Below, one piece after another: positions 3,747 through 58,243 of a stretch of DNA of 64,000 nucleotides. The position numbers and the translations under genes are program-made. Within the stretch, counting starts at the first letter, position 1; each line of letters opens with the position of its first letter. Origin of the DNA: PVC group bacterium. Its GTDB lineage: Bacteria > Omnitrophota > Gorgyraeia > B26-G9. Below the pieces are notes generated by a model. It ran no database searches, was not told where the DNA came from, and saw only the letters and a program-made list of their open reading frames with translations. The stretch spans positions 257,210 to 321,209 of the forward strand of contig JAAEQR010000072.1 in NCBI GenBank assembly GCA_024231215.1. The letters run 5' to 3'.

Positions 3747-3770
3747 ATCTGGATTTCGAGTAACGAATAT

Positions 3771-3810
3771 GAAGAGGTTGTTATTTATTTAACAGCCTCT
3801 TTTTTATTTT
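3771..3810 (+). terminator. Rho-independent terminator after the truncated gene
   Basis: Inverted repeat aagaggttgtt / aacagcctctt (1 mismatch) with loop atttattt, followed by tttttatttt. Confidence 0.6.
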
Positions 3811-3853
3811 ATATAAAGTATGGTAAAATAGATGTTATTAGTATTAGCTTGCG

Positions 3854-3882
3854 TTGACAGGTTGAAAAACAGGTGGTATACT
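3854..3882 (+). promoter_or_regulatory. sigma70-like promoter: TTGACA - 17 nt - TATACT
   Basis: ttgaca at 3854-3859 and tatact at 3877-3882, ~60 nt upstream of the AGGAGG RBS of the 3945 gene. Confidence 0.55.
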
Positions 3883-3944
3883 TGATTGTTTTTATTATAA
3901 CCTTGTTTGTAAAATAAAATTCATACTTTAAAGGAGGATGGGGA

Positions 3945-5534
3945 ATGCAGGAAGTTAAGGGAAAATTGGCAAAATTATTCATATTGATTGTAGTGTTTGG
4001 GTTAAGTGCAGGGGAAGGTATTTCCTTTGCCCAGGATGTAGCAGAAGAAGAATCGCAAAAACCTAAAGATATCTTTAATATGGTAATTCCTTCAGACTGG
4101 GGGCGTGTCAGAGATGTATATAAAGGAAGCAAAGGCCAAAAGCAGGTAATTGTCCATATTCAGGATGCGCATTGTAACTACGATGCCCAGACAAATATTG
4201 GTAATATTTTAAACAAACTGGTAGAAGAATACGGTCTGAGCATAGCGGGTATAGAGGGAGCAACGGGCAAACTGGAGACAGAAGAGTTTTCTAGTTTTCC
4301 CGAAGATGATATCCGATATCAAGCTGCAGATTACTTTGTGCGCCAGGGTAAAATGAGCGGGGCGGAAGCTTTGGTTATCAGCCGGGGGGTAGAATATCCC
4401 TTGGAGCTTTACGGGATTGAAGATGGAGTATTATATTTAGATAACTTTAAGGCCTACCAGACATCACTTCCTTTTAAAAATGAGGCAAAGGTATTTTTCA
4501 TCAATCTAAAATATGCTCTTACCCGACTCAAAATGTTTTTATATAATACCGACTTGCTTGAATTCGATGTGCAGAAAAACGAGTTTGAGAAGAAAGTCCT
4601 ATCGCTTAATGATTATATTATTTTTCTATCTGGAGAAATGGCGAAGTACAATATTAATAAAACGGGATATGAGAATCTTTCTCGGTTGATTAAAGTAAAT
4701 AAAACAGAAGATAAGATAGATTTTGCTAAAGCAGAAGAAGAACGCACTAAATTGCTGACCGAACTTACCGGGATACTCTCAGAAGATGATATAAAAGCAT
4801 TACTTGATCAGGGAGTTGACTATCGCAACGGAAATATAACGGCAGCTCGTTATCTTGAGTTTGTTAGAGAACTGGCTCAGAATAATGAGATGAATCTTGA
4901 AGATTATAAGAACTTGGACCAGTACATTGATTACTCAGAAACGTATGATAAGATAAATAGTGCTTTGCTGTTTGATGAGATATGGCAGATTGAAGATGCA
5001 ATAAAAACTAACCTTTATACCGATGATGAGCAGGCAAAGCTGGACCTTTTGATTCGTGGGATGGAGACAATGGAGCGGCTTGTGGATATTAAGATGGTTA
5101 ACCGGGATCTTTCTTTTTATCAGGAACATAGTGACGAATTCAAGACAGATTCATACTATACCTTTATTACTAAGCAGGTAGAAAGATTCAAACTTGATAT
5201 TAACTTGCCTTCTGATATTAGTTACTTAGATGTTTATATCCCAGCCTGGGTCAATTTCTACAAAGTTGCGGGGAAAAGAGACGAAGCAATGATAGATAAC
5301 ACTATAAAGGTGATGGTCGAGAAAGACCGGAAAATAATGGCTATGGTTACCGGGGGCTTTCATACCCGGGAGCTGACTCGTATTATGCGGGATCGAGATG
5401 TCTCCTATATAGTTGTTACTCCGCACATCAAAAGCAATGAAGGTAATCGTTATTTTGATCTGCTTACCGGGGGAAAGACAGATTTAGAAAACTTCGTAGA
5501 AGCGATGAGTGAAGAAGTAACTTTGAAAGAGTAG
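3945..5534 (+). CDS. Secreted protein, QDAHC/GGFH paralogue family (possible TIKI/TraB/GumN/ChaN-like metallohydrolase fold)
   Basis: AGGAGG RBS 8 nt upstream of ATG; N-terminal signal peptide (KLAKLFILIVVFGLSAGEGISFAQD). Motifs VIVHIQDAHCNYDAQ, AGIEGATG and C-terminal VTGGFHTREL..SYIVVTP. The x-D/E-x-H-x-N N-terminal block and the C-terminal GxxH resemble the GExHD and GxGH signatures of the ChaN/TraB/TIKI superfamily (from memory, not searched). Confidence 0.8.
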   Translation: MQEVKGKLAKLFILIVVFGLSAGEGISFAQDVAEEESQKPKDIFNMVIPSDWGRVRDVYKGSKGQKQVIVHIQDAHCNYDAQTNIGNILNKLVEEYGLSIAGIEGATGKLETEEFSSFPEDDIRYQAADYFVRQGKMSGAEALVISRGVEYPLELYGIEDGVLYLDNFKAYQTSLPFKNEAKVFFINLKYALTRLKMFLYNTDLLEFDVQKNEFEKKVLSLNDYIIFLSGEMAKYNINKTGYENLSRLIKVNKTEDKIDFAKAEEERTKLLTELTGILSEDDIKALLDQGVDYRNGNITAARYLEFVRELAQNNEMNLEDYKNLDQYIDYSETYDKINSALLFDEIWQIEDAIKTNLYTDDEQAKLDLLIRGMETMERLVDIKMVNRDLSFYQEHSDEFKTDSYYTFITKQVERFKLDINLPSDISYLDVYIPAWVNFYKVAGKRDEAMIDNTIKVMVEKDRKIMAMVTGGFHTRELTRIMRDRDVSYIVVTPHIKSNEGNRYFDLLTGGKTDLENFVEAMSEEVTLKE

Positions 5535-5612
5535 TTAAAAAAAACAAAGACCATGATTGCAAGTTATTTATTTATAACACGTTATGAATATAAAAAAAAA
5601 TTGCGATACTCT

Positions 5613-5640
5613 TGCAAAATATAAAATCGTGTGGTATACT
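5613..5640 (+). promoter_or_regulatory. sigma70-like promoter: TTGCAA - 16 nt - TATACT
   Basis: cttgcaaa at 5613-5618, gtggtatact with the hexamer at 5635-5640; shares the GTGGTATACT -10 context with the 3854 promoter. Confidence 0.45.
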
Positions 5641-5780
5641 TTATCAACTTCTTTGTTTTACTTGTAATAATTTTTGTAGATTTTAATCAGTTTTAAAGTT
5701 TTGGGGCAGTTGAAAAAAAGGAAGAAAAAGTGAAGGAAAAAATGAAGAGTTTAACAATGGGTGACAAAAAAGGAGGAAGT

Positions 5781-7691
5781 ATGTTTAGAAAGGTATTATC
5801 GGTATTAATTATTTGTTCTTTTATGTTTTCTAATGCTTGTTTTGCTATGCCCGCAGCCGCTATACAGGCGAATGTGGATAATATGGCTTTGCAGAGCTTA
5901 GCGCAGGAATTTAAAGGAAATGTAGACCAAAAATTCGTAGATGCTTTTAAAACTAAAGTTGAGGCTGATAAAGCGGGATTTAGGGTATTATTGACTTTAT
6001 TAACCGGTAATAAATATGCTGATGATCAAGCAGCATTCGACACGATCATGGAAATGGCAAAAACTAGTAAACAGGACGGGGATTCGGTAAGTGATTTTTT
6101 ACTTAAAATGAAGATGAAAGTGGAAAAGGGTGTTGTTACCGGAACAACCCAAGGTGGTGTTACTATTAGTGCTACTGAGGAAAATAATAAGGTAGTAGTG
6201 AGTGACTCGAAAAGCTTAGAAGCAGAGATTGCTGCTGCAATACCTGGAAAAAATGCGCACAATGGTCGCTGGGATGTAACAGCTGAAGAAAAAGCTACTG
6301 GCGAGCTTATTACACTTGATGTTATCAGTGATGAACAGATGGAAGCAAGCGAAGAACTTACAGCTGCGGAATATAAGGCAGTAGAAGCAGCAATTGCAGA
6401 TATTAAAGCTGATGCTGAAAAGAATGCAGATAAGATGACTGTGGAAGAAAAAGCAGCAGTTGACAGATTAGACGATATGCTGAAAAATCATCAGATTAAA
6501 TCTATTGTAGATGTAGTAGAAGCACAGCATAAATATTCTTTTGGTGTAGAAAAGGAAAATGCTGATAAAAGCTTTACTTTCGGAGTTGGCAAAGCTATTC
6601 TTTCTCATGAGAATAAAAAAGTTTTAAAACAGAATATTTTACACTCAGCTTTAGCTGCAGGTAATGAAGGAAGTTTTGAAGCGCATTTAGATGTTATTAA
6701 GCGTCAGGCTGTGATTACTTCTCAGGATGAAGCAGACGAAGTTGGTACAGCGATGAATAAGTTGAAAAATGATATGTTGAAAAAAGTCACAGTAGATAAT
6801 GTTATTAAAGAAGGCAAACAGCTTAATACAGCTGAAAGTAAAAAAGTATTAAAGGATGCTGGTCTTGCGCAGGGTGATATGACCGATGACGTAATGGTGG
6901 ACTCGGTTAATAAAGTAATTGCAGAAGGATATGACCAGGATGTTCGTATTCCTATGATTTCATCTGGAAAAATATTCAATAAAAAGTTAAGTGCTGTTAA
7001 ATATAGACATGGTAGAGGTAGTAAAACTTCAGCGGCGTTGACGGTTAAAGAATTGACTGATATGATTAAAGAAGGAAAAGCTACAGCTTTAACTAAAGAG
7101 GTTAGTACTTTCCTTGATAAAAGTGTGGATGAAAACGGCGAATTAATGCCGAATACTGTTTTATCATCTCTTTTAACAGTTGCTCAAGAAGTAGGAAAGA
7201 ATACAGAGATAACTGGACCTAAACCGTTGAATATTGTTGATCTTGATGATACATCTTATGCTCGTTTAGAAGAGATTATTAAAGTTTGGGATGTTGCGCA
7301 TGTATTTAATCTTCAAAAAGGAAGTGCTAAGAGTTTGAATATTAGCGGAAAAGACTTGTCTATAATTCATACTGTCCAGGAACAGGATGCTATGGAAAAA
7401 GTAGACGGTGCGTTTTACCTGCCTTTGGATGGTAACTTGTTAACTCAGATGGCAAATGGTGAGGCAGTAAGTGAAATCTATGATATCGGAAGTGTATTAA
7501 TCGCAGCAATGACTCAGGATGTTACTAAATTGGGATTAACTGCCGATGCACAAAGTAAACTGAAAGCTCTTAGAGCAGACGGTAAAATAGATCTTCAACC
7601 GGTACTTACCGTAAGAGTTGCTGACGATGCTGCTTATCAAGATAGTTTTAAGCAGTTTAAGATTACATTGGCCCGTTTAAGAAAGGCGTAA
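5781..7691 (+). CDS. Secreted hypothetical protein (Ala/Lys/Glu/Val-rich, ~637 aa)
   Basis: The ORF track starts at a GTG at 5730, but AGGAGG at 5771-5776 sits 4 nt before ATG 5781 (MFRKVLSVLIICSFMFSNACFAMPAAA), a typical signal peptide. No recognisable catalytic motifs. Confidence 0.7.
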   Translation: MFRKVLSVLIICSFMFSNACFAMPAAAIQANVDNMALQSLAQEFKGNVDQKFVDAFKTKVEADKAGFRVLLTLLTGNKYADDQAAFDTIMEMAKTSKQDGDSVSDFLLKMKMKVEKGVVTGTTQGGVTISATEENNKVVVSDSKSLEAEIAAAIPGKNAHNGRWDVTAEEKATGELITLDVISDEQMEASEELTAAEYKAVEAAIADIKADAEKNADKMTVEEKAAVDRLDDMLKNHQIKSIVDVVEAQHKYSFGVEKENADKSFTFGVGKAILSHENKKVLKQNILHSALAAGNEGSFEAHLDVIKRQAVITSQDEADEVGTAMNKLKNDMLKKVTVDNVIKEGKQLNTAESKKVLKDAGLAQGDMTDDVMVDSVNKVIAEGYDQDVRIPMISSGKIFNKKLSAVKYRHGRGSKTSAALTVKELTDMIKEGKATALTKEVSTFLDKSVDENGELMPNTVLSSLLTVAQEVGKNTEITGPKPLNIVDLDDTSYARLEEIIKVWDVAHVFNLQKGSAKSLNISGKDLSIIHTVQEQDAMEKVDGAFYLPLDGNLLTQMANGEAVSEIYDIGSVLIAAMTQDVTKLGLTADAQSKLKALRADGKIDLQPVLTVRVADDAAYQDSFKQFKITLARLRKA

Positions 7692-7774
7692 CAATACTTT
7701 GCAAGGAGACATTAATTTGTCTCATTGCTTTATTTATGTTTGTTGTAGAATACTAAGTTTAGCATAAGATGGGA

Positions 7775-7816
7775 GGGCGGGCGAAACAAATAATCATGTT
7801 TCGCCCGCTTTTTTTG
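7775..7816 (+). terminator. Rho-independent terminator
   Basis: gcgggcgaaaca / tgtttcgcccgc, a 12-bp perfect stem with 8-nt loop, followed by ttttttt. Confidence 0.8.
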
Positions 7817-7847
7817 TGTGGGGATTGAAAAATTCAGGAGGTGTTTA

Positions 7848-9539
7848 ATGGGTATGTGGGGGAATGAAAGTTTGCGGCAAGGGGGCATGCTTGTGAATGC
7901 AAAGGAGATACTCAAGAATAGTATTGTATTCACATGTATTTTATTATTGATATCCGGTGTTTATTTGAATACCTGTAATGCAGAGTCTTTTTTAAAGACT
8001 AGAGTTGAGAAGATTGATGCTCCTAAGTTAAATGAGATTGATCGTATTAAGCAGGTCTTGCGGCATTTGGATATCCCGAGGGATGTTGGTTTTGTAAAAG
8101 AGATTCATACGCCTACTAATCCAAGTGAAAAACTGGTAATTAATATTCAGGATTTACATTGTCATTATCAAGCTCAAAAAAATATTGCAGCGTTGATTGA
8201 TCATCTTACAGATACATTCGGCTTGAAACTTGTTGGGGTAGAAGGTGGTTCTGGAAAGATAGATACTACATTCTATAAAGAATTACCCGATGAAAAAGTA
8301 AAAGAACAAGTAGCTGATTATTTCCTGCGTGAGGCGCGGATTAACGGAACAGAATACTTTGCTATAAATACTAAAAAAGATATTGCTCTTTATGGGGTGG
8401 AAGATCCGAAATATTACGATAAAAACTTAGATGCTTTTTTAACGGCTTTACCAAAAAGAGAAAAAATCATGGACGATATTGCGGTCTTGGAAAATGATCT
8501 GAATATATTAAAAGATCGTATTTATAATAAACGTTTAAAAGAACTAGATGATACTGTTGTGGCTTATGAAAACGGTAGTTTGCCGTTTGAAGATTATGTG
8601 GTATATGTTGCCGAGCAGTATGAAGATGGTAAATTAAAGCGTGATTTTAGAGAGTTGGCAAAGTTGGTTGATAGCATTCGAATAAAGCGTAATCTGAATC
8701 TGGAAAAAGTCGGGAAACAGCGGGAAAAACTTGTTAAGTTTCTAACTAAGAAATTACCGCGGTTGGAAATGGAAGATTTTTTAAAGATAACCATGGAGTT
8801 TAAGGCAAAAACAATAAAAGGGATGAAGTATCATAATAAAGTTAAAGAACTTTACGATAACCTTGATGCAAAAACAAAGACACTTGACCGGGCCTGGCCT
8901 GAACTTAGTAAGTATATAGTATATTTAAATAAATATGAAACTTTGGATAACTTTGCGATGTTTACAGAGTTGGATAAGGCTGTGGACAGGGTAAAAAGGA
9001 ATGCTTATACCAGCTATACTCAGAAAAAATTAGATCATAACTTAAAGACAATTCGTTTGGCGCGTAATTTATTTGCTACTAAGTTACTAAATCGAGATAT
9101 ACCGTCGATAAAAAAATATCGCAGTGATTTTAATTCTAAAAAGATGGCGAAGTTTATTGCATCTCAGGCGAAAAGATTAAAACTGGATCTACCGTTGCCG
9201 ACGGATATGGAGGAGATGGAAAAGACACTTCCTATAGTAGAAGATTTTTATTATTATGCTTCAAAACGCGATAATATTTTGGCTGAGAATACCTTGAATA
9301 GTATGAAAGCAGAAAATGAATGTATTGGTATTTTGGTTGCTGGTGGTTTTCATAGTGATGGGGTAGGTGAATATTTTAAAGATAAAAAAATAAGCTATAT
9401 AGTGTTAGCGCCTTATGTTGATGAATTAGAAGAGGATGATACGCGCTATATTAATGCTTTACAGGGCAAAAAGACTCCGTTTGAAGAGCAGTTAGAGAGA
9501 GAAGAACAATTAGCAAAAAATGAAGAAGAACAAGAATAA
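7848..9539 (+). CDS. Secreted/membrane-anchored protein, QDAHC/GGFH paralogue family (third copy)
   Basis: CAGGAGG at 7835-7841 with ATG at 7848 (track start 7818 lacks an RBS). Motifs VINIQDLHCHYQAQKNI, VGVEGGSGKIDT and VAGGFHSDGV..SYIVLAPYV mirror the 3945 gene; hydrophobic N-terminal segment IVFTCILLLISGVYL. Confidence 0.75.
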   Translation: MGMWGNESLRQGGMLVNAKEILKNSIVFTCILLLISGVYLNTCNAESFLKTRVEKIDAPKLNEIDRIKQVLRHLDIPRDVGFVKEIHTPTNPSEKLVINIQDLHCHYQAQKNIAALIDHLTDTFGLKLVGVEGGSGKIDTTFYKELPDEKVKEQVADYFLREARINGTEYFAINTKKDIALYGVEDPKYYDKNLDAFLTALPKREKIMDDIAVLENDLNILKDRIYNKRLKELDDTVVAYENGSLPFEDYVVYVAEQYEDGKLKRDFRELAKLVDSIRIKRNLNLEKVGKQREKLVKFLTKKLPRLEMEDFLKITMEFKAKTIKGMKYHNKVKELYDNLDAKTKTLDRAWPELSKYIVYLNKYETLDNFAMFTELDKAVDRVKRNAYTSYTQKKLDHNLKTIRLARNLFATKLLNRDIPSIKKYRSDFNSKKMAKFIASQAKRLKLDLPLPTDMEEMEKTLPIVEDFYYYASKRDNILAENTLNSMKAENECIGILVAGGFHSDGVGEYFKDKKISYIVLAPYVDELEEDDTRYINALQGKKTPFEEQLEREEQLAKNEEEQE

Positions 9540-9638: not shown

Positions 9639-12575
9639 ATGTTTCACAGAAAAGAAAATCGTAGTTTTTCAAAATTAATTGCATTTATTCTCATTCAGGC
9701 GTTTGTATTGGTAAACGCGCCGATAATTTATGCCGGAGGGTTATTTGACCGTAGTGCGCAAGATATCGCTTGTTTATCTCCCCAGATGCATTTAGGTGCT
9801 TCTGCATTACAGCAGGCGTTTACGGTAGAACCGGAAATTGGGCCGAGTAATGACAAAACTATCAATCTCGATGTTCTGAATCAATTGCTTGATTCCGTAG
9901 AGCTGGATGAAAACTTATTGGCTATGGAAACGTATTTAAGAAAATTTCTATCACATGATGATATCAAAACTGATACCAAGAGTTGTATTGAAATGCTCAA
10001 AAAAAGAGGTTTATTATCTCCAGTTAGCGAAACAACAGTTGAGAATTTAGCAAGAGCTATGAAGCGGGGGATTACAAGGCAGGCAGATTTGTTTCGGGAT
10101 GATATTGTAGATAAGTCTAAATCTTATGTGCGAGCAGAGCAAACAACGCTTCGTACCAGGCTTGCGACTTTAAATTATCTTAATAACAACGCAAAAGACG
10201 CAGAACTTAATTTAATCAATGCGTATAGATGGACCCAAGGTGATAATACAATTCTAAACAATATTTATAATGTATTACAAAAAGCAGCGTTGGTTAGTAT
10301 CGAAGTAGGAGCTTTATGGGAAAAGATGTTATTAGAAGACGACGGAGACAAAGCAGATGCATTCCAGCAAATAACAGAGATTATTACTTCGCAGGAAGTG
10401 GCAAAAGCTAATCAGCTATTAATAAAGGAAATAGATACAGATTGTGAAAACAATAGGGTGGATAATGCCAGAACTAAATTGACTCAACTATTAACTAAAC
10501 AAGAGCTTTCTTTGTATGGTAAGAAAACATTAGTAGAAATCATAAGTGATAAACTTTCTTTGTCGGAAGAACAACATACTCAGGTTGTTGAAATGTCTGA
10601 AGATGAAATATCCGATGCAGATATAGTAGAGTCGATAATTATTAACCGACTTTCTAATAAGCTAAATAATCTGAACAAGTCACTAGAAATTAATTTAAAA
10701 GGAAGAATGTTTGATGCGGCTTTGGCTGATATGAAAAGCATTGAAGATATAGGTGTTTTAGGTTTTGAGGAAATGAGTGAATTTAGAGATGCACAGGTAT
10801 TAATGGATTCTGTTCTGTTCAAAGAAGCAAAATTTTGGGCAGACACAAGTCTGATTAGTTTTAGTCAGGGGGATAAATCGGAAGCTAATACATCACTAAA
10901 GAATATGCTTGAGATATACGCGCATGAAGCAACTGTATTAGAGACGCGGGGTGCAATATTTAACGAGTTAAAATATAAGAAGATGGTTACTGATGATGAC
11001 AGTGAATTTTTTACGGACTTGGAGAATGCAAATGATGCGTCATCTAGGGAAAACAGTATTAAAGTTATTGTAGCAGCGATAGAGAAGAATATTGAACCGG
11101 GAATAGAAATCTTAGCAGATAATGCGAAATCATCAGTGTATGGTGATTCTACTAGAGATGATGAATATTTGACGTCAGAACAGAAAACAGAATTACTGAG
11201 AGCAAAGACAGATTATTTGCGAGAGACGATTATAAATGCTGTATCTCGTGCATATGATAAAGCAGATGTGGCCGAAGGAAGTCTTTATATGCAACAACTG
11301 GTTGATCTTACAGCTGAGAATAAAACCGATGCAGAGTTTGTTGAGCAGACGGCAAACTTAATAATCAATACCTGGTTTGGCGGTAGTGCGAGATATAAAG
11401 GTAGAGTAATGTCTTTTTTTAATGAATCAAATACATCAGAAATAACTAAATTGATTAATGATCAGGTGATTCCAAGTAAAGCGGAAACGATAATTTCTTT
11501 AGTAAAGTGGGGTTATGATCGGGGAGATATCAAAACCGCGGAAGAATATCTGACTGAAGTATTGATGCTGAGTATTTCAGCCGGAGTTACACAGAGTTCG
11601 AGAATGCAAATTATAACTTCATTGAGAATTAATGGATTGGTGCGAGATAGTCTGAATCCTATTTTAACTAGCGATCTTGAAGCAGCGGTTAATGCAGAAG
11701 ATAAGGCTAAGAGTATTGAGAATATAGTTGCATATTTAACGGTAAATATCGGTCTGAATACAGTACGGGAAGATGTCCCTCAGATGCGGCGTTATTTGCG
11801 CAAACTCCAGACAATAGATGCGGGGAACAGCTTGCTTGTGCTACTTAATTCTTTTTTTGCAAAAGGAGTTTCAGCCGAACGCCAAAAAGAATTGGTGGAT
11901 ATGCTGGTGGCCGAAGAAGTAATTAGTGAAAATGAAAAAGATGCACGCTTAAATGAATTAACTAAAGCAATTGGAAAGTCTGAAAAGGTCTATGAGATAA
12001 GAGATATTATCCTTAAACAGGGGATACTGGTTGAAATGGCCGGCCAAATAAGTTTGGCTAACTGGCTTTATGAACAACTGGAAGCTGACAAAGCTGGCAG
12101 CTTTTTAAAATTGGTTTTGGATATTTGTGATGTAACTCCGACTTTAGGAAAAGATATATTTGCTTTGTTATCCGCGGTAGGATTAGAAAATGCAGATGAT
12201 ACACAAAGAGAGAATTTATATCAAATCCTGAGTAAAGATGATACACTTAAAAATGAAATTATTGAAACGATCAATTATAATCAACAGATTGAAAAAGCAG
12301 AGCGGTTGATGAGACTAATAAGCCTTCGCGCAGCGGATAAAAATGATATCGGTGGAAAACAAATGTTTAAAGAAATTAAACGCTTGCTTAAAATTTATTG
12401 TGATGAAGGATCGTCCGAGCGGTTAAAGAAAAATATTTTCGCATTAACATCTAGATTAAGTAATTTAAACATGAGAGCTTTGCTGGGAAGTATCTTCTCC
12501 TCAGTTTCTAAAAAAATAGAATCTGAGAAAGCTCCGACGGAACAAGTATTAAGTATAGTTGGTCAGGCGATATAA
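9639..12575 (+). CDS. Large hypothetical exported protein (978 aa) with the conserved N-terminal 'ILIQAF' hydrophobic motif
   Basis: GGTAGGAGG RBS before ATG; N-terminus MFHRKENRSFSKLIAFILIQAFVLVNAPIIYAGG (basic n-region, hydrophobic core, A-x-A-like end). The rest is helix-rich with no recognised domain. Confidence 0.75.
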   Translation: MFHRKENRSFSKLIAFILIQAFVLVNAPIIYAGGLFDRSAQDIACLSPQMHLGASALQQAFTVEPEIGPSNDKTINLDVLNQLLDSVELDENLLAMETYLRKFLSHDDIKTDTKSCIEMLKKRGLLSPVSETTVENLARAMKRGITRQADLFRDDIVDKSKSYVRAEQTTLRTRLATLNYLNNNAKDAELNLINAYRWTQGDNTILNNIYNVLQKAALVSIEVGALWEKMLLEDDGDKADAFQQITEIITSQEVAKANQLLIKEIDTDCENNRVDNARTKLTQLLTKQELSLYGKKTLVEIISDKLSLSEEQHTQVVEMSEDEISDADIVESIIINRLSNKLNNLNKSLEINLKGRMFDAALADMKSIEDIGVLGFEEMSEFRDAQVLMDSVLFKEAKFWADTSLISFSQGDKSEANTSLKNMLEIYAHEATVLETRGAIFNELKYKKMVTDDDSEFFTDLENANDASSRENSIKVIVAAIEKNIEPGIEILADNAKSSVYGDSTRDDEYLTSEQKTELLRAKTDYLRETIINAVSRAYDKADVAEGSLYMQQLVDLTAENKTDAEFVEQTANLIINTWFGGSARYKGRVMSFFNESNTSEITKLINDQVIPSKAETIISLVKWGYDRGDIKTAEEYLTEVLMLSISAGVTQSSRMQIITSLRINGLVRDSLNPILTSDLEAAVNAEDKAKSIENIVAYLTVNIGLNTVREDVPQMRRYLRKLQTIDAGNSLLVLLNSFFAKGVSAERQKELVDMLVAEEVISENEKDARLNELTKAIGKSEKVYEIRDIILKQGILVEMAGQISLANWLYEQLEADKAGSFLKLVLDICDVTPTLGKDIFALLSAVGLENADDTQRENLYQILSKDDTLKNEIIETINYNQQIEKAERLMRLISLRAADKNDIGGKQMFKEIKRLLKIYCDEGSSERLKKNIFALTSRLSNLNMRALLGSIFSSVSKKIESEKAPTEQVLSIVGQAI

Positions 12576-12688
12576 GGATAGTTTTTATTAGGGAGATTCT
12601 GAACAGTGGTAAAAAAAAAGTCAAAATTCACACAATTATTTTTATTCTTATCCAGGCATTTATCCTGCCGGGTGGGCTAGGGGCGGGT

Positions 12689-14608
12689 ATGCACAACAAG
12701 GACGCAGTGAATAGAATCTACTTGTCCCCACAATTAAATATAAATAGTGTTTTATTGCAGTCGGTATTTAACCGGATGCCGGTTGCTTCATCTCCCCGGA
12801 TAAAGGTTAACATTCCGGAACAAACCATACAAAAAAAATTCATTATTTCCGCTTCCCTTAGAAAGCGTTCTGTTTTACTTGATACTGCGTGGAAAGCTAT
12901 ACCAGCGATATATCGTTTTATTTTCGGTCCTGCATTTAAAATTATTCAGTCGCAGAAACATAAGCTTAAAGAACGTATAACCCAAGTTGTATTTAATCAT
13001 CTTTCACTCCGGAAACCATTACCTGTGTCGGCTGTGGTAAAGGATGATCTTTATGCAAGGTTGGCAGGCGCGGCAAATAATTTAATTGGCACATATGCGC
13101 CGGTATTTACTGACTCACAGGAAAAGGCAAAGCGTATAGAAAAGCAGCTAGTGGGAGGTCTTGCTTTTTTAAAGCAGATACAAATGGTTGATCAGCTGAT
13201 AGATAAGATTTGTTCTATAAAAAATAAGTCTGAATATATAAATGATTTTTTAGAGCTTTTTAGCCGGGAAGAAATACCAGCCTATACCAGAAAAGCTATT
13301 TTTGAACATATATTAAAGAAGAAGCTTTTTGTAGATGATCTGGATGAGAAATTATTCTTAGATTATGTTCAGGCGATAGAAATAGGAGACAGGAATAAAG
13401 CATATCGGCTGCATGTAAAGATTGTTGAGATGCTTGCGATGAACCTTTCTTTAAAGCATGAGGCATTGCTTATTGAGGCAATGATCGAGGCTTATAATCA
13501 GAAAGATTTGGATTCCGCAGAACAACGGCTTTCAGACTTGCTGGAAATGTATGCGGATATGAATAGGACTTCAGAATATAGAAACATATTATTTAAGAAA
13601 TTAAAAGGCAAGGTATTGATAGAAGAAAAAGATAGAGATTTATTTGATGAGCTTGTTGATATTTCAGAAAGTAATTTTCCCGTAAGCATCATAAAGAAGA
13701 ACATATTTGCTATGTTCTATCATGCATTGGCAACATATTTGAAAGAAGTGAATCCGTTCATTTATAAAATATTAAAAGCAGTTAAACTATACTTTACAGA
13801 GGAAGAAAAACCTAAAACTCCGAAGCCGGTTGTAGTTGATCCGGTGCTGACTCAAGATGTTTCCAAGGGAGTAGACAGTTGTCCGGTTTTTGCAGATGAA
13901 ATAATTGAAACTATTGATAGAGCATTGTCTAGCGATGATATTATTATTAATTTTTTACGGAAAGTATGTTTAGAAGCAGATTCATCAATAGATAGTTCAG
14001 AAAGAGAGCTATCTATTGTAAAACAATTCTTAAACGATACGATGTTTAATAACCCCCATATAGATAAAGAAAACATAATTATTGGATATGAGATGGAAAC
14101 AAGGGATGATATGTTTTTGCTGATGCGGGATATTATGCTTCGATATCGTGCAAATAGCGAACAAGGACTTCCTTTTGATTTTGAACTTTTGGCGGCACGA
14201 GTATTAAAAGAAGATGCACAGTTGTATTCATTTAAACTTATGGAGCCAATACGGAACTTTCATGGACTTGCGATAAGCAGGGTAGAAATTTGCGGGCCTA
14301 AGGATAAAAAGGAAAGAGGGAGTAAGGGTCGGTTGGCTTACATAGAGGTACCCTACAAAAGTTCTGGGGAGCGTGAATTTAATAGATTATATAAAGCTGC
14401 GCGTGATAATCAATATGATTATGGAAAATTTGCAGTTGGTGAAACAGTTTGCGAAAATGGCATAAAAATGTTTGAGATTATTATCAAGGGAGATGGCAAA
14501 TCGTCCGATTTTGGCATAAGATTTTCTATTAAGGATGAAACTTTCGGATTATATCCGAAAAATGATCATAATTTTGATCCCATGGAACTGGTTTTACAGG
14601 CAATATGA
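12689..14608 (+). CDS. Hypothetical protein. The in-frame region 12527-12688 upstream of the first ATG encodes the family N-terminal motif, so the true start is probably GTG 12606, reached only via a frameshift at the A9 tract 12611-12619
   Basis: The frame of ATG 12689 is open back to a TGA at 12524-12526 and translates ...KKKVKIHTIIFILIQAFILPGGLGAGM-HNK, which matches the KLIAFILIQAFVLVN motif of the 9639 gene. There is no ATG/GTG/TTG in that stretch. GTG 12606, 10 nt after AGGGAG at 12590-12595, lies in the other frame and would join with one extra A or a -1 slip at A_AAA_AAG. Confidence 0.6.
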   Translation: MHNKDAVNRIYLSPQLNINSVLLQSVFNRMPVASSPRIKVNIPEQTIQKKFIISASLRKRSVLLDTAWKAIPAIYRFIFGPAFKIIQSQKHKLKERITQVVFNHLSLRKPLPVSAVVKDDLYARLAGAANNLIGTYAPVFTDSQEKAKRIEKQLVGGLAFLKQIQMVDQLIDKICSIKNKSEYINDFLELFSREEIPAYTRKAIFEHILKKKLFVDDLDEKLFLDYVQAIEIGDRNKAYRLHVKIVEMLAMNLSLKHEALLIEAMIEAYNQKDLDSAEQRLSDLLEMYADMNRTSEYRNILFKKLKGKVLIEEKDRDLFDELVDISESNFPVSIIKKNIFAMFYHALATYLKEVNPFIYKILKAVKLYFTEEEKPKTPKPVVVDPVLTQDVSKGVDSCPVFADEIIETIDRALSSDDIIINFLRKVCLEADSSIDSSERELSIVKQFLNDTMFNNPHIDKENIIIGYEMETRDDMFLLMRDIMLRYRANSEQGLPFDFELLAARVLKEDAQLYSFKLMEPIRNFHGLAISRVEICGPKDKKERGSKGRLAYIEVPYKSSGEREFNRLYKAARDNQYDYGKFAVGETVCENGIKMFEIIIKGDGKSSDFGIRFSIKDETFGLYPKNDHNFDPMELVLQAI

Positions 14609-14712: not shown

Positions 14713-15099
14713 ATGGGACAAGAAAGAAGAAAATACATACGTTTAAAAGTACACAGTTCAGTGGCTAATTGCCGTTTGTTGTCAATACGTCAAAGGGACC
14801 CGTGTAGTACCTTTACGGTCTGGCCGGTAAAAGACCTTGGAATTGGAGGGCTATCGGTTCATACTGAAGATGAAGTTCCTTTGGATACCTTAGCATATCT
14901 GAATATGGATCTGGATATCGCTATGCGTACCGTAGGAGTTCTTGCCAAGGTGATCTGGCGTAAGGCAAAAGATGTAGGCTATGAGCTGGGGCTGCAATTT
15001 TGCGGCTGGCCCAAAGAAGATGACCGGGATGCCATGGCTGATTATATTGAGCATCAGATCAGTAGTGAATCTGATTCTGAAGCTATAATTTTAGGATAA
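14713..15099 (+). CDS. PilZ-domain protein (putative c-di-GMP receptor), ~128 aa
   Basis: MGQERRKYIRLKVHS has the RxxxR motif (RKYIR); DLGIGGLSV is a D-x-S/G-x-x-G variant of the second PilZ signature. Probable start ATG 14713 (purine-rich GAGGAAA upstream) rather than track start 14689. Confidence 0.7.
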   Translation: MGQERRKYIRLKVHSSVANCRLLSIRQRDPCSTFTVWPVKDLGIGGLSVHTEDEVPLDTLAYLNMDLDIAMRTVGVLAKVIWRKAKDVGYELGLQFCGWPKEDDRDAMADYIEHQISSESDSEAIILG

Positions 15100-15120: not shown

Positions 15121-18100
15121 ATGAAGTTTCTAGGTTTAAAACATAGGATGTTAAAACCCAAAATTTGCAATAGAACGTGGCGAAGAACACTAATCTTTTG
15201 GGCTCAAAAAAGCTACAAAAAGCTTCGACAAACAATAAAGTGTGCCTGCGTTTTTTGTAACTTTTTGATCTCCAAAATATCAGCACTCTTTATCCCCGAC
15301 TATCGCAAAATCTGGGTTAAAATAATTGCAATGACACTTGTTCAGACATTTCTGATTGTGAATATCTGTGGACCAGTACATGCCCAAATTAATAATAAGG
15401 AACAGACTAATTCTGATTATCTGGCGCCGCAGGTGATTTTGAATCATGATACCATCCGAAATGCTTTTATTGATATTGTAGAAAATGGTAATATATTCGA
15501 TGGTCTTTTTGAAAGTGAAAATCAATTTAGCGAGGGGGCAGGGAATGATGGGAAGGTACATCATCAATCAACTAATATTTTTAATAATTTTTCAAGTCCG
15601 GTTTCTATCCCAAGTGATTTCGCTAACGGAAAAATAATCAGACTGGATAGCCCCACAGCACCACCGCCACCCGAGAATTTCAAACAAGTTTTTCCAACAG
15701 GTTTTAATGAATTTAAATTTGGTTTGTGGGGAAGATTAAGTTGGAACAAAGAAGATTTAGTTCAACACATGAAGAAATATGGAATAATTGTAGATTCTGA
15801 GGATTTTGATAAAGAACAATTGCGTAGGGTATATAACACGTTTGTTGTAGCGGTTGAAAAAGATAAAGATTTTACAAATGCATGGTTTATGTTGGGAGAA
15901 ATTCATATTTCCAGAGAAGATATGTATTTTCAGGCAGGAGAAGAGAAACCACACAAGCTTCTTTTCCCGCATGTTACAGAATATGAGACAAAAATAATTT
16001 TCTATAATTCTTTCTTTTATATTAATAGAATGACAAGAATTCATTTATTTGATGGAAGAAGCGTAAATGACCGCAAGAAGAATTTAATAGACACCGTTAA
16101 AATGGCTCATGATCTTAGTGTGTATTATGAGGGGAGGGGATTGCCGGTTAAAACTACTGATTTAGAGAGTGCTCAGGCGCAGGATATGTTTGAAAAATTA
16201 GATATAGTTGGAACTGAGTCCACAATAAAATTCATTCTTGATTCGATGAAAGATGAACCGTATGATGATATCAAAATAGCAGTTCCGGAATTAATATCGA
16301 TACAAGCTTTTAAAAACGCATTGAGGATATCGAGAATTAGTTATGAAGAGCTGGGTAGAGAACAAATGATAGAGCTGCTTACAAAGATAAATGAATTGGC
16401 ACAGGAAGATATGCTTAATAAGAGTCGGGTTGACGATGAGCTTTTAAATAGAGCAATATCTGAGTGTTCTAATGTTTCTCTTAGTGCTGGAAAAAAGAAA
16501 ATGCTTATTAAGAGTCTAAATAGTGCAATTGATACCTGGAAAAATGAAAAAAAGTATTGGGGAGTTAGAGAGCACTTTAGTGGCGGGCGTCAAATTCGGA
16601 CATTTCTTTTGTATCCATTTGGCATCCAGGAGTTAGACAGACTTCGAAATGAATCGAATGGATATAAAAATCCTCGTGTTTGGAAAATCCGAGAAGATGA
16701 AGATTCTATGGCTATGTATGAATTGTTATGGAGATATTCGCCTAAAAACCATGAGATAGAGGAGGGGCATTTACAGCAGGTTTTTGCGGCTGATCCAGAT
16801 AATCCTGTTCTAGATATTCCTTTAAAGGATGGATCACCTGATGATATACTTCGTTCAATAGTTGAGATTGCGGTGACTGATTGGAAACAAAAGGCGGCAG
16901 GTCTTTCGGGTGGATTTGTGTCTGCTATGAAGGGAATAACCAATACATTGGGACAGAATGGTTATAATGCGTATTTGCCTGGGCCGAAGACAGAAGGGTT
17001 GCTTAAAGAAGTGCATGCAAATGTTCCTATTTTTAGGCATGGTGGGTATATGGCAGTTGCATTAGATATATGGTTTTTTTATGTTTTTAGTGCCAGAGAA
17101 AACTTAAATGTTAATAAATTGAATCATATTGTAGAACATATTTGTAGGACAAGATATACATTTTTGAATGAAAGAGGAAGAAATCTAGTTAGGACTCATA
17201 TTCAGGAAATTGATAATAAACATCGCAAAGAAAGAAAACTTCGAACTCGCAATTTGAAGTTAAAAGAGGAAGATGATCATTGGGTAAATAATGGGAGTGG
17301 TACATTATTCCCTAAATTATTAAATGTAATGATGGGTATTCCTTTTTTTGCTGTAGAAACTATGATTCCGACAACATTAAAGGCTTCAACTATAGTTCAG
17401 CAAAGTCAGGGAGGTGCTGGTGGAGCGAACTTGGGTGCTTATCTGGTGGGAGGGATAGCTGTTGGATTTTCTGTTTGGATATATAATAAATTTTTTAGTC
17501 AAAAAGCAATTCGGAAAGAAATCGAGAGACTTTCTTTGGAAGCAATGGAGAAAAATGATGTTTCTAAATTAAGAAGATATTATGACAAATCTAATTATAA
17601 ACGTAAGCAGATGATTATTAATACGGTTGGAATAGCCGGAGAAGAAGCAACTAATGAGGCCTTTCTTCAACAACTTATAGCGAGTGAAGGTGACGATGCA
17701 TATGCTAAAGCTGTTGTGGATGGAGTCTATGAATTTTTGTTGCTTAGAACTAGCGATGTATTGTCGGGTACTATATATGAAATATCTGATTTATCATTGC
17801 AGGATTCTGTTTTACTAGAGTTCTTAGTAGAAGATGATATGGATAAAAAATATGATATAGTTATTGAAGATGAATTTGCTGTGGCAGATGAATTGGTCGA
17901 AGTTTTTGGGGAGTTGCAGCAAGAGCAAGCTGATTATGCACTGGGTAACAATGAATTTCATAAAGGAGAATTTTATAGGATGGTCAATGAGAATCCTGTG
18001 CTGAAAGAATCCTTGATTGACGCTGGTAGAAAAAAAGGTGAAGTTCTTCAGCGGTTTGCTATAAATAACTGGATTGCGGTACAAGCTAGAAAAAACAAAG

Positions 18101-18312
18101 AGGATGCTTCAATAGTAGTTGAAAAGTTACTTTCACCGGAAGCAAGAAGAAAAGTGGAAGAAATAGGGGATAATTCTAGTGATCCTGATTTTAGAGCTGA
18201 AGCTGAATTAGCGCTTATGCTGGATGAAAAATTAACAGTTGGAACATCAAGAAGCAGTGTAGATTCGAGAGAAAAAGACTCATTGATTGCAGTTATTGAG
18301 GCTGCAATTTAG
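15121..18312 (+). CDS. Large hypothetical membrane-anchored protein (1,063 aa). Basic Cys-containing N-terminal extension, then the conserved 'LVQTFLIVN' hydrophobic motif, then a later Gly-rich TM segment
   Basis: AAGGAG 9 nt upstream of ATG 15121. Motif RKIWVKIIAMTLVQTFLIVNICGPVHAQ at residues ~62-90; internal hydrophobic GAGGANLGAYLVGGIAVGFSVWIY at nt ~17400-17480. No catalytic motifs recognised. Confidence 0.7.
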   Translation: MKFLGLKHRMLKPKICNRTWRRTLIFWAQKSYKKLRQTIKCACVFCNFLISKISALFIPDYRKIWVKIIAMTLVQTFLIVNICGPVHAQINNKEQTNSDYLAPQVILNHDTIRNAFIDIVENGNIFDGLFESENQFSEGAGNDGKVHHQSTNIFNNFSSPVSIPSDFANGKIIRLDSPTAPPPPENFKQVFPTGFNEFKFGLWGRLSWNKEDLVQHMKKYGIIVDSEDFDKEQLRRVYNTFVVAVEKDKDFTNAWFMLGEIHISREDMYFQAGEEKPHKLLFPHVTEYETKIIFYNSFFYINRMTRIHLFDGRSVNDRKKNLIDTVKMAHDLSVYYEGRGLPVKTTDLESAQAQDMFEKLDIVGTESTIKFILDSMKDEPYDDIKIAVPELISIQAFKNALRISRISYEELGREQMIELLTKINELAQEDMLNKSRVDDELLNRAISECSNVSLSAGKKKMLIKSLNSAIDTWKNEKKYWGVREHFSGGRQIRTFLLYPFGIQELDRLRNESNGYKNPRVWKIREDEDSMAMYELLWRYSPKNHEIEEGHLQQVFAADPDNPVLDIPLKDGSPDDILRSIVEIAVTDWKQKAAGLSGGFVSAMKGITNTLGQNGYNAYLPGPKTEGLLKEVHANVPIFRHGGYMAVALDIWFFYVFSARENLNVNKLNHIVEHICRTRYTFLNERGRNLVRTHIQEIDNKHRKERKLRTRNLKLKEEDDHWVNNGSGTLFPKLLNVMMGIPFFAVETMIPTTLKASTIVQQSQGGAGGANLGAYLVGGIAVGFSVWIYNKFFSQKAIRKEIERLSLEAMEKNDVSKLRRYYDKSNYKRKQMIINTVGIAGEEATNEAFLQQLIASEGDDAYAKAVVDGVYEFLLLRTSDVLSGTIYEISDLSLQDSVLLEFLVEDDMDKKYDIVIEDEFAVADELVEVFGELQQEQADYALGNNEFHKGEFYRMVNENPVLKESLIDAGRKKGEVLQRFAINNWIAVQARKNKEDASIVVEKLLSPEARRKVEEIGDNSSDPDFRAEAELALMLDEKLTVGTSRSSVDSREKDSLIAVIEAAI

Positions 18313-18748: not shown

Positions 18749-21700
18749 ATGGTGACTCGAATATTTCATAGTATAGTCTACTGCGGGCACAAATTATTGC
18801 ACATCTGCAGCGTTGTGCTTCTTCAGCTTTCTCGTCGTACCGCAAAGGGTACGCCTCCGGAAGCTTCAGTCGCACGCCTTGCATCTGCACAACACTTTGT
18901 GTCCTCGCGACGACAATACCATGAAATACCCGAGTTGCGCGCAAATCGAAAATACAAATTGTGGTTTCGAATCGTATCCGCGATACTTGTCCAGGCCTTT
19001 TTGGTTATGGATATCGCTATGGCTTCGGGCGGAGATTTGAGCTGGTTAAAAACACCTAAAAATCTATCCCGTAGTGAAAGTAAAATTTCCCATCTTTCTC
19101 CCACCACAAAAATCGATAAAGGAGTTTTCCGAAACAGCGTTGAATTATGGAGCGCTCTTGCTATAGCAATGAATAGTCCTGATAATGAAGAGCTGCGCAA
19201 GCCTTATGGGATTAGTGTTGTTGATGCCCACAATAGAATAATGTCTATAACGATGGAGAAGGAAGTATTATTTATTTATCGTCTTGATGATGCGCCAATC
19301 GCTTTTAAATTAAACCCCGTTCTTGAAACTACAACTAATAAGATGAGATTGGGTGAATTTGAACTTGCGACAGTACCGATTGAAGAAGTAGTTGAAGTAG
19401 GCGGTGATTTACTTGGATATGAAAGAATTATTACTTCGCAGGAGTTTGCAGAACGCTTAGATGCTTTAAACAGCGCGCCAGAGTTTAATGAAGAAGAGGC
19501 TTTGGAGCTGGTCAGACAAATGATATTAGCGGCTGGGATTACCGGAGAGATTAAAACTATAGGTAGGGATCAATATGCGAAATGGAAGCCGGAGAAATGG
19601 GATGTGCAAAAAGAAGCGACCAAGCTGATGTATAAAGGTTGTGTAGTTAATATGCCGACTTCGGCTGGAAAGACGATTGTATTTAATGCTACAGGGATTT
19701 TACGTAATCTTGCTAATAGATTACAAAAAGATAAGAAACGCGAAGTAACGATTGTGCATACTGAAGAAAATTTGGTAGAAAGAGATGCTATGCAGGCAAG
19801 CAAAGTAAATCAAAAGTTTAAAATGACTACCGGATATGTAATTTCTCAGGATGGAGAACGTAAGGCGTATATTGATAAAAATGGAGAGATGGAGGAGACT
19901 ACAGAGCAAGATTTGTATAAGAATGCAGATATTGTTTATATTCATGTTTACAATTTTGTGCATAGATTTCAAGCTGATTGTTATACCGCTAAAAAGACAG
20001 AAGATATCGCTTTGCTTTGGGGCCAACAGACTTATTTTATGGCTTTTGATGAAGGTGATGTTCCTTTAAAACATCATATGTCTACGCCGAGTGTTCTTTC
20101 CGGTGGTAATGATTTGATAGAGGGAATTAGGAAGATGCGATTGCATTTTGCGAAAAAGACAATGCAGATACAGGAGATTGTTGATGAACTTATTCAGGGT
20201 GATTTGTTAGATCCTGTTACTGGTAAGGCATCTAATAATTATTGTGAAGTACATAAGGATTCAAAGACGGTTAATCTGACCCCGAACGGTAAGGATTGGC
20301 TAAGAGCTAAACTCGAAGGAGTGAAAGAATATACTGAAAATAGGAATACAGAGATGGGAGATTTTGATCTATGGTTAGACTTTACAGAGTTGGCTTTATC
20401 TGCATATCGTTGTTATAAGATGGGTGTAGATTATAAGATAAAGGCTGATGCAAATGGCAATAATCAGATTGTAATTATTGATAAAGATACTGGTATGGAG
20501 TTGCCCGGACGGCGCTGGAGTCATGGTGTGGATATTGCCGTGCGTTTAAAAGAAAACCGTCAGGGAACTGAAAAACTTGAAATCAAACCGGATCAGATGA
20601 TTATTGCTTCAATGATGTTGCCGGAAATTCTTAGCTCTCAATTGGGGCTAGTTTCCGGGATTAGTGCAGCTTCTGCTACAATTGGTGAAGATACGGCCCA
20701 GATGTATGATATCAAATGGAAAAATCTTAGTGATCGTACAGAAGAATCAAAAAGAGAAGAGCGAATTGTAGTAAGTTCTGATCAAAAAACATCAGAACAG
20801 CATGCACTGGATATGATTGAGGTTTTAAAAGCTGGTAGTAAGGTAAAAGACTATATGCAGAAATGGGGCATGCCGGATAAAGATAAAACAGGTGCTGTAA
20901 TTATACGTTGTGATTCGGAACCTGAAGGAGCGAAGTTCACAGATGAGCTTATTCAGAAGACTACTTTAGGGCAAAGGAATATACTCAGAATAAAACGAGA
21001 TGGTACAATCGTAGATGCTAATGGTGAGCAGATAAAAGGGGCGAGTTTGCAGAATTTGGATAGTTTAATTGCAAATGATAGTATAGATAATATCTTAATT
21101 GATTTCAGCTCGGGTAATCAGAATATGTTTACTGATTTGACGGGAGAGAAAAAACTGAAAGATAAAATTGCGACGCTTTCTAAAGATAAGCGGGTTATTA
21201 TTGTCTCCACAAACTTAGTTGGTCGTGGGGTGGACTTTAAAGGTGATAACATGGTGTGTATTTCTTTGAGCTGTGATATTGCCGAAGAAAGTGAAATTCA
21301 GCTTAAAGGACGAGTTGCTCGTGACGGCAGAAAGGGGTACTTTTTTGGTTTTTGGTCGATTCAGGATGAAGTTTTTGTGAAATACAAAAAACTTATTCCT
21401 GACTCCCGGATGCATTTTTCGACAAAAGTAAAAGATGGTAAAACGCATATTTTTACCCTGACTAATGATCCTAAGAAATCAGTAGAAAGTGAAAGGCATA
21501 TTGTAGGAATGAGAGATGTTATTAATGATCATATCCAGCAAATGCGTCGTGAACAGAAAAAATTCGGAGAATCTTTATGGGATCCGGGCGATGATTCTGG
21601 ACATAAAAAGGGTTTTGCCAAAGAATTTGTGGAAAATAGATATCGTGTGCTTGTTCGCGGGCTACAGGGGGTGGGGATCCCTGAATTGGATGATATCTTA

Positions 21701-57243: not shown

Positions 57244-57283
57244 AGATATCCGCTACAAAAATCGGCGGATCCAATTTGTGTAG

Positions 57284-57313
57284 ATCATTTAGTTCATAAA
57301 GTCGCTAAATGAT
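57284..57313 (+). promoter_or_regulatory. Conserved 5'-UTR stem-loop upstream of CBM-like paralogue B
   Basis: atcatttag / ctaaatgat, a 9-bp stem with 12-nt loop ttcataaagtcg, ~15 nt upstream of the AAGGAGG RBS. Preceded by a second hairpin atccgc..gcggat (57248-57270). Confidence 0.5.
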
Positions 57314-57343
57314 GTGCTTATTAGAGAAAGGAGGAGCAAGGTG

Positions 57344-57991: not shown

Positions 57992-58023
57992 TTATTGAAA
58001 AATCTAGGTTAGATTGATTATAA

Positions 58024-58062
58024 AAGGGTAGGGGTTAGAATAGTAGCTTCTACCCTTTTTAA
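58024..58062 (+). terminator. Rho-independent terminator (repeated element, copy 1)
   Basis: aagggtag / ctaccctt stem with 18-nt loop gggttagaatagtagctt, followed by ttttt. Confidence 0.6.
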
Positions 58063-58183
58063 TAGTAAGGGGTGTTAGTTCACAGAACAGAGAGGGTTGC
58101 ATTTTTTTTATAGATGATATAAAATAAAGAACAATAGAAATAGGTTGTTTTGCCAAAAGACTTGGCAGATTTAATTCGCGTAG

Positions 58184-58215
58184 ATTACTTAGCTTTACGT
58201 TGTTCGCTAAGTAAT
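58184..58215 (+). promoter_or_regulatory. Conserved 5'-UTR stem-loop upstream of CBM-like paralogue C
   Basis: attacttagc / gctaagtaat, a perfect 10-bp stem with 12-nt loop tttacgttgttc, ~15 nt upstream of the AAGGAGG RBS. Preceded by a second hairpin tgccaa..ttggca (58151-58168). Same stem/loop geometry as 57284-57313 with covarying sequence. Confidence 0.5.
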
Positions 58216-58243
58216 GCGTTTATTAAAGAAAGGAGGCAAAGGA

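Follow-up and report, generated by a model that had tools for sequence, protein, structure and literature searches.

A nine-adenine run is the site of a reading-frame change at the start of a gene with a shared N-terminal module in a PVC group bacterium

The window described here is one 64-kb stretch (64,000 nucleotides, nt) of a 708-kb contig from a metagenome-assembled genome labelled 'PVC group bacterium' in GenBank, and the gene in question lies on its + strand, where GenBank annotates an open reading frame (ORF) at 12689-14608 as a protein of 639 amino acids (aa; MCP4649174.1, GY853_03715) with the ATG at 12689 as its start. An earlier note on this stretch had proposed that the real N-terminus lies upstream of this ATG, that translation starts at a GTG at 12606 in the other frame, and that the two frames meet in a run of nine adenines (A9, 12611-12619). 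Alignment of the corrected N-terminus to its homologues supports this proposal, and the A9 run is the site of the frame change. As reconstructed with one A added, and in line with the N-terminal alignments, the whole gene would span 12606-14608 and encode 667 aa. Concerning the origin of the break, we favour a real, non-programmed slipped-strand contraction from A10 to A9 within the Lys codons of the n-region, to which we assign a probability of roughly 0.45.

The frame junction and the start codon

The anatomy of the junction (12527-12700, + strand) was obtained by direct reading of the region 12300-13000. A Shine-Dalgarno (SD) sequence, AGGGAG (12590-12595), stands 10 nt before the GTG at 12606-12608, the inferred true start codon, from which frame 0 reads GTG GTA AAA AAA AAG TCA and translates as MVKKKSKFTQ until a TAG at 12678-12680 closes a product of 24 aa (MVKKKSKFTQLFLFLSRHLSCRVG). 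The A9 homopolymer occupies codons 2-5 counted from the GTG and forms the Lys run of the signal-peptide n-region; a length of A10 or A7 would be in frame. Two overlapping slippery heptamers lie across 12611-12620 in the phase of frame 0, A_AAA_AAA (12611-12617) and A_AAA_AAG (12614-12620), and a -1 shift on either gives the identical product, MVKKKVKIH. The 639-aa ORF is in the -1 frame (frame 2) relative to the GTG. Its frame is open upstream to 12527, holds no ATG, GTG or TTG before 12689, and encodes the peptide KKKVKIHTIIFILIQAFILPGGLGAGM; one A added to the run gives, by reconstruction, the N-terminus MVKKKVKIHTIIFILIQAF. The positions that the earlier note had given for the SD, the GTG, the A9 run, the stop and the open frame devoid of a canonical start all agree with this reading. 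So does the identity of FILIQAF, in 7 of 7 residues, with the protein of the neighbouring gene at 9639, where it forms residues 16-22. The accompanying claim that different codons are used stands for three of the seven, all of them synonymous, while the remaining codons are the same, leaving 18 of 21 nt identical.

A profile was trained on the N-termini of the proteins encoded at 9639, 15118 and 18749 only, the frameshifted gene being excluded, and run on the six-frame translation of the window. Its only match outside the training sequences is in frame 2 at 12617-12763 (+ strand, E=1.7e-7), which starts inside the A9 run and spans the annotated Met. The matched segment is the conserved N-terminal module, made of basic residues, the hydrophobic helix IIFILIQAF, a linker and YLSPQ. 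Five residues are invariant in an alignment of 10 sequences (L15, Q17, F19, L40 and P42). Three of these five, L15, Q17 and F19, as well as the near-invariant I11 and A18, are located upstream of the annotated Met29 (ATG 12689), hence the annotated start would drop the best-conserved part of the protein; the complete set (L, Q, F, L, P) is present only if frame 2 upstream of 12689 is translated. The 54 open codons preceding that ATG are the longest such stretch among 15 measurable window ORFs, with a chance probability of ~0.026. An A9 run is by itself unremarkable, with 2 observed in the window vs 4.3 +/- 2.1 expected, and the chance that one of only two such runs lands in the 15-nt frame junction is p ~5e-4. 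Only one of the two runs of at least nine A, the one at 12611-12619, is within coding sequence. Profile match, conserved residues, open upstream stretch and junction probability together exceed chance, and for this reason the frame change is placed at the A9 run. The other run (5592-5600) is intergenic; it follows closely on the stop of the ORF at 3945 and precedes the ORF at 5730 by ~130 nt, and an A8 run is found at 5537-5544.

Concerning the start codon, the GTG at 12606 is the sole canonical start beside the module and has the best ribosome-binding site nearby. Its pairing with the anti-SD amounts to -8.9 kcal/mol at a spacing of 9 nt, a value reached by no more than 5% of random window positions, and matches the sites of the well-supported starts at 9639, 15121 and 53217. 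Eight homologues with short N-termini (seven ORFs from metagenome contigs and the 9639 gene) all start at an in-frame ATG, 13-19 codons before the L of the motif LxQAF; from GTG 12606 with one added A this distance is 14 codons. In BLAST alignments, residue 2-5 of the corrected N-terminus aligns with residue 2-8 of these homologues, and the alignment with the eight is nearly end-to-end, which bears out the suggestion that one extra A gives an N-terminus of the family type. The gene model should begin at GTG 12606.

No frame change would be needed if translation began at an ATT in frame 2 (12587-12589, + strand), giving MREILNSGKKKVKIHTIIF, or at the ATG at 12689, in which case the protein would be truncated, devoid of the module and possibly neofunctionalised; we hold either case to be very improbable. 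The ATT is in frame, has the SD AAGGA (12574-12578) at a typical spacing of about 7-8 nt, and lies 20 codons from the L of LxQAF, just beyond the range of the family, yet its anti-SD pairing is weak (-6.0 kcal/mol). AUU start codons are very rare and weak. The ATG at 12689 is the GenBank start, but it loses three of the five invariant residues, and its SD-like run (-7.5 kcal/mol) is just 1 nt off, too close. Both starts, moreover, leave unexplained a strong SD and GTG standing out of frame exactly at a homopolymer (p ~5e-4).

Further candidates were rejected. A start in frame 1 is ruled out by the TAA at 12610-12612, and starts at ATT 12596 and CTG 12599 abut the SD (spacing 0-3 nt). Read-through or fusion from the 9639 gene is excluded by a TAA at 12573 followed by a TAG at 12579 in the same frame. 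Neither a terminator nor a convincing promoter was found between the 9639 gene and 12606, hence the two genes are likely co-transcribed.

Contraction, miscounting, recoding or phase variation

In the explanation that we favour, translation would start at GTG 12606 and yield a 667-aa protein with a Lys-rich basic n-region followed by the hydrophobic N-terminal module of the family. In an AT-rich genome the Val-Lys-Lys-Lys codons would form a poly(A) run, and the sequenced allele, A9, would be one short of the in-frame A10 through strand slippage that shortened a hypermutable 5' homopolymer and was not programmed. We infer both the direction of the change, from A10 to A9, and the reality of the allele. 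The contraction would have struck a dispensable, lineage-specific extra copy of a fast-evolving family, in which case the sequenced allele would be an OFF or low-expression one. An A9 template under standard decoding would give the 24-aa peptide. Full-length protein would arise mainly via RNA polymerase slippage on A9/T9, which adds one A to some transcripts, and to a minor extent via tRNA-Lys slipping by -1 on either heptamer, A_AAA_AAA or A_AAA_AAG; the heptamer itself would simply result from a G standing after Lys codons, with no evolved signal behind it. Part of the expression is probably recovered by slippage of RNA polymerase on A9, with a small further contribution from -1 slippage of the ribosome. 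We infer these routes and their relative yields from the fact that A9 runs slip RNA polymerase efficiently, set against at most 0.55% shifting on an unstimulated heptamer.

Several observations fit this explanation. Tracts of poly(A) at the 5' end are a common route of gene inactivation, and that of inlA varies ~1000x faster than the average point mutation frequency (PMC2831843). The n-regions of the homologues are rich in Lys and Arg, and their Lys codons give A6-A7 runs in two of them (L002a and L005) and no run longer than A7, hence A-runs arise naturally at this position. Consistent with dispensability, no homologue was found among 1.84 billion representatives, and the syntenic contigs carry 0-2 module genes, none of which is this gene.

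Other observations weigh against it. The A9 tract is known from one assembled sequence alone, which leaves room for an assembly or consensus error. The 639-codon body is fully open and SD and GTG are intact, which fits a recent change or a maintained recoded gene equally. The window genes contain seven other Lys runs of at least 3 codons, none of which is written AAA-AAA-AAA (0/7, p ~0.06) despite AAA making up 68% of Lys codons; hence, a long A-run is out of the ordinary in this genome and may have been selected for being slippery. The same count suggests avoidance of long A-runs in coding sequence. The yields of slippage, finally, are extrapolated from Escherichia coli and Thermus.

If the run was miscounted, the true genome would have A10 (or A7), and the gene would be an ordinary one with an in-frame GTG, distinguished only by the longest coding homopolymer. 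We consider such an error unlikely. The source is a metagenome-assembled genome, no homopolymer class in the window is longer than A9, a single additional base brings back an N-terminus typical of the family, and the GenBank annotation could not flag the frameshift because the protein has no homologue. Against this, no run of at least 7 bases in the called ORFs breaks the frame, and an ORF of 10,730 codons (32 kb) is intact. Furthermore, an in-frame A9 inside a module-family gene of related contigs (L003 6419-6427, L004 1779-1787) is identical in assemblies from two samples, hence such runs can assemble stably. An error is made less likely by the clean window and these reproduced runs; yet the A9 at the junction is the only coding one in the window.

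The earlier note had put forward a canonical, dnaX-type programmed frameshift, for which we find no support: there is no 3' structure, the spacing of the SD is off, and all eight homologues have an ordinary ATG. Both heptamers are in phase with GTG 12606. The hexamer AGGGAG, ending at 12595, stands 15 and 18 nt before them, outside the stimulatory range, as SD-like stimulation of -1 shifts requires 9-14 nt (PMC5009743). No 3' stimulatory structure was found: the first 26 nt after the heptamer are unpaired and the sole hairpin starts at 12647. The fold of 12621-12700 has a minimum free energy of -13.6 vs a shuffle mean of -13.1 kcal/mol (z = -0.19), and the wider fold of 12570-12720 (z = +0.92) is no better than shuffled sequence. 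Searches of Rfam for an RNA, riboswitch or frameshift element gave only matches far under the gathering scores. The shift site is not conserved in related genes either, the eight homologues using their in-frame ATG with no run longer than A7. An ordinary in-frame ATG in orthologues had been named beforehand as speaking for lineage-specific decay; such starts are what we find, in eight homologues rather than in orthologues.

Regarding efficiency, unstimulated shift-prone heptamers in E. coli, A_AAA_AAG included, shift at 2-10x a 0.055% background, i.e. ~0.1-0.55% (PMC4066793). The shiftiness of A_AAA_AAG depends on a single tRNA-Lys, and Thermus, with two, uses transcriptional slippage on A9 instead (PMC5009743). 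No tRNA genes were found in the 64-kb window. In bacteria, transcriptional slippage typically becomes efficient from nine A or T onwards (PMC1088944, PMC5009743), and the run at 12611-12619 has this length exactly at the junction, the homologues being without such a run. Nine is also the typical length where selection against runs appears, and such runs are in addition hypermutable in replication (PMC5009743, PMC1088944). Runs of nine A or T were previously found in disrupted ORFs and ORFans (PMC1088944, PMC5009743).

A broader version of recoding would have the A9 run maintained, with the full-length fraction set by transcriptional slippage, by -1 frameshifting on A_AAA_AAG, or by both; in one variant the initiating AGGGAG doubles as 5' stimulator, like one SD in IS911. 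Slippage after initiation would then send a fixed minority of products into the frame of the module, RNA polymerase slippage being helped by -1 slippage of tRNA-Lys with the initiating SD still near the ribosome. We give little credence to programmed recoding, and equally little to the A9 run as a maintained site of this kind. What speaks for them is that the heptamers are in phase and that SD, GTG and the 639-codon body are intact; that A9 suffices for efficient RNA polymerase slippage (PMC5009743, PMC1088944); that mxiE and the dual-role SD are precedents (PMC5009743); and that 25-60% shifting occurs near a start codon at C_AAA_AAA in pDEST17 (PMC1851650). They are opposed by the missing 3' structure and Rfam match, by the SD spacing of 15-18 nt vs 9-14 nt (PMC5009743), by the ceiling of 0.55% for an unstimulated heptamer in E. 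coli (PMC4066793), and by the need for a single tRNA-Lys (PMC5009743) in a window without tRNA genes. In addition, the eight homologues have an ordinary ATG, no orthologue was found among 1.84 billion representatives, and the 24-aa product of frame 0 has no evident role.

Under adaptive phase variation the run would be a 5' poly(A) contingency tract, by which replication slippage turns an accessory protein exposed at the surface ON (A10/A7) and OFF (A9/A8), the OFF form being the one assembled; we judge this to be decidedly unlikely. The run is indeed a simple repeat in the 5' coding region able to switch the frame, A10 and A7 being in frame, and it is hypermutable and located in codons 3-5 of a gene whose N-terminal module would serve export or anchoring. 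As regards a possibly surface-exposed or variable product, the N-terminal module is basic and hydrophobic, the bodies are unrelated between members, and the copy number of the slot varies; beyond the module the family is hypervariable, and related genomes differ in how many copies they have. Moreover, passages of a preprint on Omnitrophota giant genes propose attachment and predation for this locus type (bioRxiv 10.1101/2023.11.21.568195), 5' poly(A) tracts serve generally as switches (PMC2831843), and long A-runs are otherwise avoided in the Lys runs of the window. Phase variation is, however, disfavoured by the fact that this is the sole such tract in the coding sequence of the 64 kb, with none longer than A7 in the n-regions of paralogues and homologues, and that A9 is at the low end of the tract lengths that switch at useful rates, one tract length being known here. 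Transcriptional slippage on A9, phase variation and homopolymer error, all of which the earlier note had listed, remain live options alongside the non-programmed contraction that we prefer.

The N-terminal module, its homologues and the giant-gene locus

Four consecutive genes on the + strand carry the module. The upstream paralogue (9639-12575, 978 aa) has it at the N-terminus, by alignment, behind an ordinary ATG start; it is followed by the frameshifted gene, by the paralogue called the 15118 gene (15121-18312, module at ~aa 66-123 by profile and alignments, with homologues in the metagenome loci L001, L002 and L005), and by a giant gene (18749-50941, 10,730 aa) with the module at aa 69-134, by profile, and SecA-like domains, by domain search, at aa 278-860. 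The module is ~55 aa long and consists of basic residues, a hydrophobic core IIsFILIQAF and, after ~20 aa, TL[AS]P; in the frameshifted gene it is at the protein N-terminus. In the window it is found at 9639-9830, 12617-12763, 15310-15490 and 18950-19150, and it also occurs in seven ORFs on L001-L005. It heads the giant SecA-domain protein and three tandem neighbours, whose bodies are mostly unrelated. The module is loosely like a class III (prepilin-like) signal, [S/A]-F-x-L-I-E, with Q replacing E, and has no match in Pfam or NCBIfam. It is probably a signal peptide or membrane anchor, and it may be a dedicated targeting signal.

Searches for relatives returned little at the level of whole proteins. 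A word-index search, an exhaustive phmmer search of 1.84 billion representatives, and searches of GTDB genome contigs and JGI metagenome contigs found, for the 12689 protein, only itself. Protein searches with the 9639 protein (978 aa) and with the first 1000 aa of the giant protein found no relatives, and the four-sequence N-terminal alignment used as a profile gave no match in a 5.8-billion protein set. Turned into a degenerate DNA pattern and run against metagenome contigs, the same alignment retrieved the five loci L001-L005, with seven module-bearing ORFs, six of them distinct. Exact-product look-ups of the 12689 ORF, the PilZ gene and the 9639 protein gave no other copies of the same population. 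No significant Pfam or NCBIfam family was found for the 12689, 9639 or 15118 proteins, and a single-sequence AlphaFold model of predicted local distance difference test score (pLDDT) 34 was unusable.

The module ORFs of L001, L002 and L005 are directly 3' of a homologue of the window gene at 7818 (58-77% aa identity), and those of L001 and L005 also adjoin a PilZ gene 44% identical to that of the window (14713-15099, + strand; Pfam PilZ E=1.2e-7), which marks the slot. From this flanking 7818 homologue, and from the PilZ gene in L001 and L005, the three loci are syntenic with the window. The number of module genes between the 7818 homologue and the PilZ or 15118-like gene is 0 in L005, 1 in L001 and L002, and 2 in the window. 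This slot behaves like a variable cassette region. The relatives have no counterpart of the frameshifted gene and, since the slot count varies as well, the gene is an extra, lineage-specific ORFan member of a fast-evolving family of variable copy number. Outside the ~55-aa module the proteins are unrelated, except for the group of 15118, L002b, L005 and L001b.

Judged by its gene content, the locus is of the Omnitrophota giant-gene type, with a giant ORF bearing a divergent SecA DEAD domain, PilZ genes and carbohydrate genes. Within aa 278-860 the giant ORF has SecA_DEAD (9.4e-11), SecA_PP_bind (4.4e-10) and Helicase_C domains, and most of the 10,730-aa protein has no Pfam match. Downstream are an MFS_2 sugar transporter (6.2e-55) and GH2-like hydrolases (Glyco_hydro_2_C 4.3e-13). 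This locus type is described in passages of the work of West-Roberts et al. (bioRxiv 10.1101/2023.11.21.568195), which share with the window a gene encoding >10,000 aa in which the SecA DEAD domain is divergent, small PilZ genes in its vicinity, and, downstream, genes for sugar import and glycoside hydrolases. In contrast, the searched passages of that preprint describe neither a shared N-terminal module nor a homopolymer frame break.

A few further features of the locus were observed. The giant protein resembles, at ~aa 7565-7851, the GH2-like proteins at 54692 and 59001. Small PilZ genes are interspersed with the module genes (window 14713-15099; L001 4183-4527; L005 2397-2765 and 6264-6626). 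Two sets of paralogues without known domains are also present: those at 159, 3945 and 7818 (window 159-9539) are 28-37% identical, and those at 56569, 57314 and 58214 (window 56569-58879) are 39-73% identical and have signal-peptide-like N-termini.

Known systems and biological meaning

The closest documented parallel is the 5' poly(A) frameshift alleles of Listeria monocytogenes inlA (Orsi et al. 2010, PMC2831843), followed by the 9A/9T disrupted ORFs of Baranov et al. The likeness to inlA lies in a poly(A) tract at the 5' end of a surface-protein gene, in which a one-base change leads to a short truncated peptide (8 aa in inlA, 24 aa here), and in a hypermutable, reversible tract (PMC2831843). 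For inlA, in contrast, the polymorphism is seen across strains and its rate was measured (PMC2831843), whereas here there is one sequence, from an unrelated organism and protein family. The cases of Baranov et al. 2005 (PMC1088944) share an A9 exactly at the frame break, where one additional A in the mRNA restores the ORF, and their survey also lists ORFans whose functional status could not be assessed (PMC1088944). Endosymbiont 9A/9T cases in Buchnera and Blochmannia are cited in PMC5009743. Unlike these, the genome of the window appears free-living or epibiotic, of moderate AT content and non-degenerate, and slippage is here a prediction from the sequence.

In Shigella flexneri mxiE, as here, the start codon belongs to a short frame upstream, and slippage on a homopolymer is required for the long product (PMC5009743, PMC1088944); mxiE differs in being a regulator whose slippage was shown experimentally, whereas here the break is at codons 3-5 and known from sequence alone. 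Nine A on the sense strand are likewise expected to give mRNAs with a variable number of A in Thermus thermophilus dnaX (PMC5009743, PMC1088944), whereas the run described here adjoins the start and belongs to an accessory ORFan.

E. coli dnaX has the A_AAA_AAG heptamer in phase as well. It also has an AGGGAG hexamer upstream. It differs by an SD-like element ~10 nt upstream, an essential 3' stem-loop, a conserved site and two functional products in a 1:1 ratio (PMC5009743); in the present gene the hexamer serves as SD for initiation and stands 15-18 nt away, a stem-loop is lacking, and the homologues are without the site.

In practical terms, MCP4649174.1 is mis-started. The annotated ATG removes the only conserved part of the protein, hence the annotation ought to begin at 12606 and include a frame change, or else mark the gene as disrupted. 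The favoured contraction would represent another case of a slip-prone 5' poly(A) run silencing or throttling a probable envelope protein, in a poorly known giant-gene lineage. Should the run instead be a maintained recoding site, it would keep an accessory partner of the giant SecA-domain protein at a dose that is low or varies with conditions. Such a case, with the shift within the first five codons, would also be the first description of recoding from a giant-gene locus of Omnitrophota. If reads were to reveal heterogeneity in tract length, this would suggest that accessory proteins of an Omnitrophota-like giant-gene locus are switched on and off. The ~55-aa module common to the giant protein and its tandem neighbours, which recurs in other metagenomes, may outweigh the frame break in usefulness; together with the slot of variable cassettes that precedes the giant gene, it may also be the by-product of greater interest.

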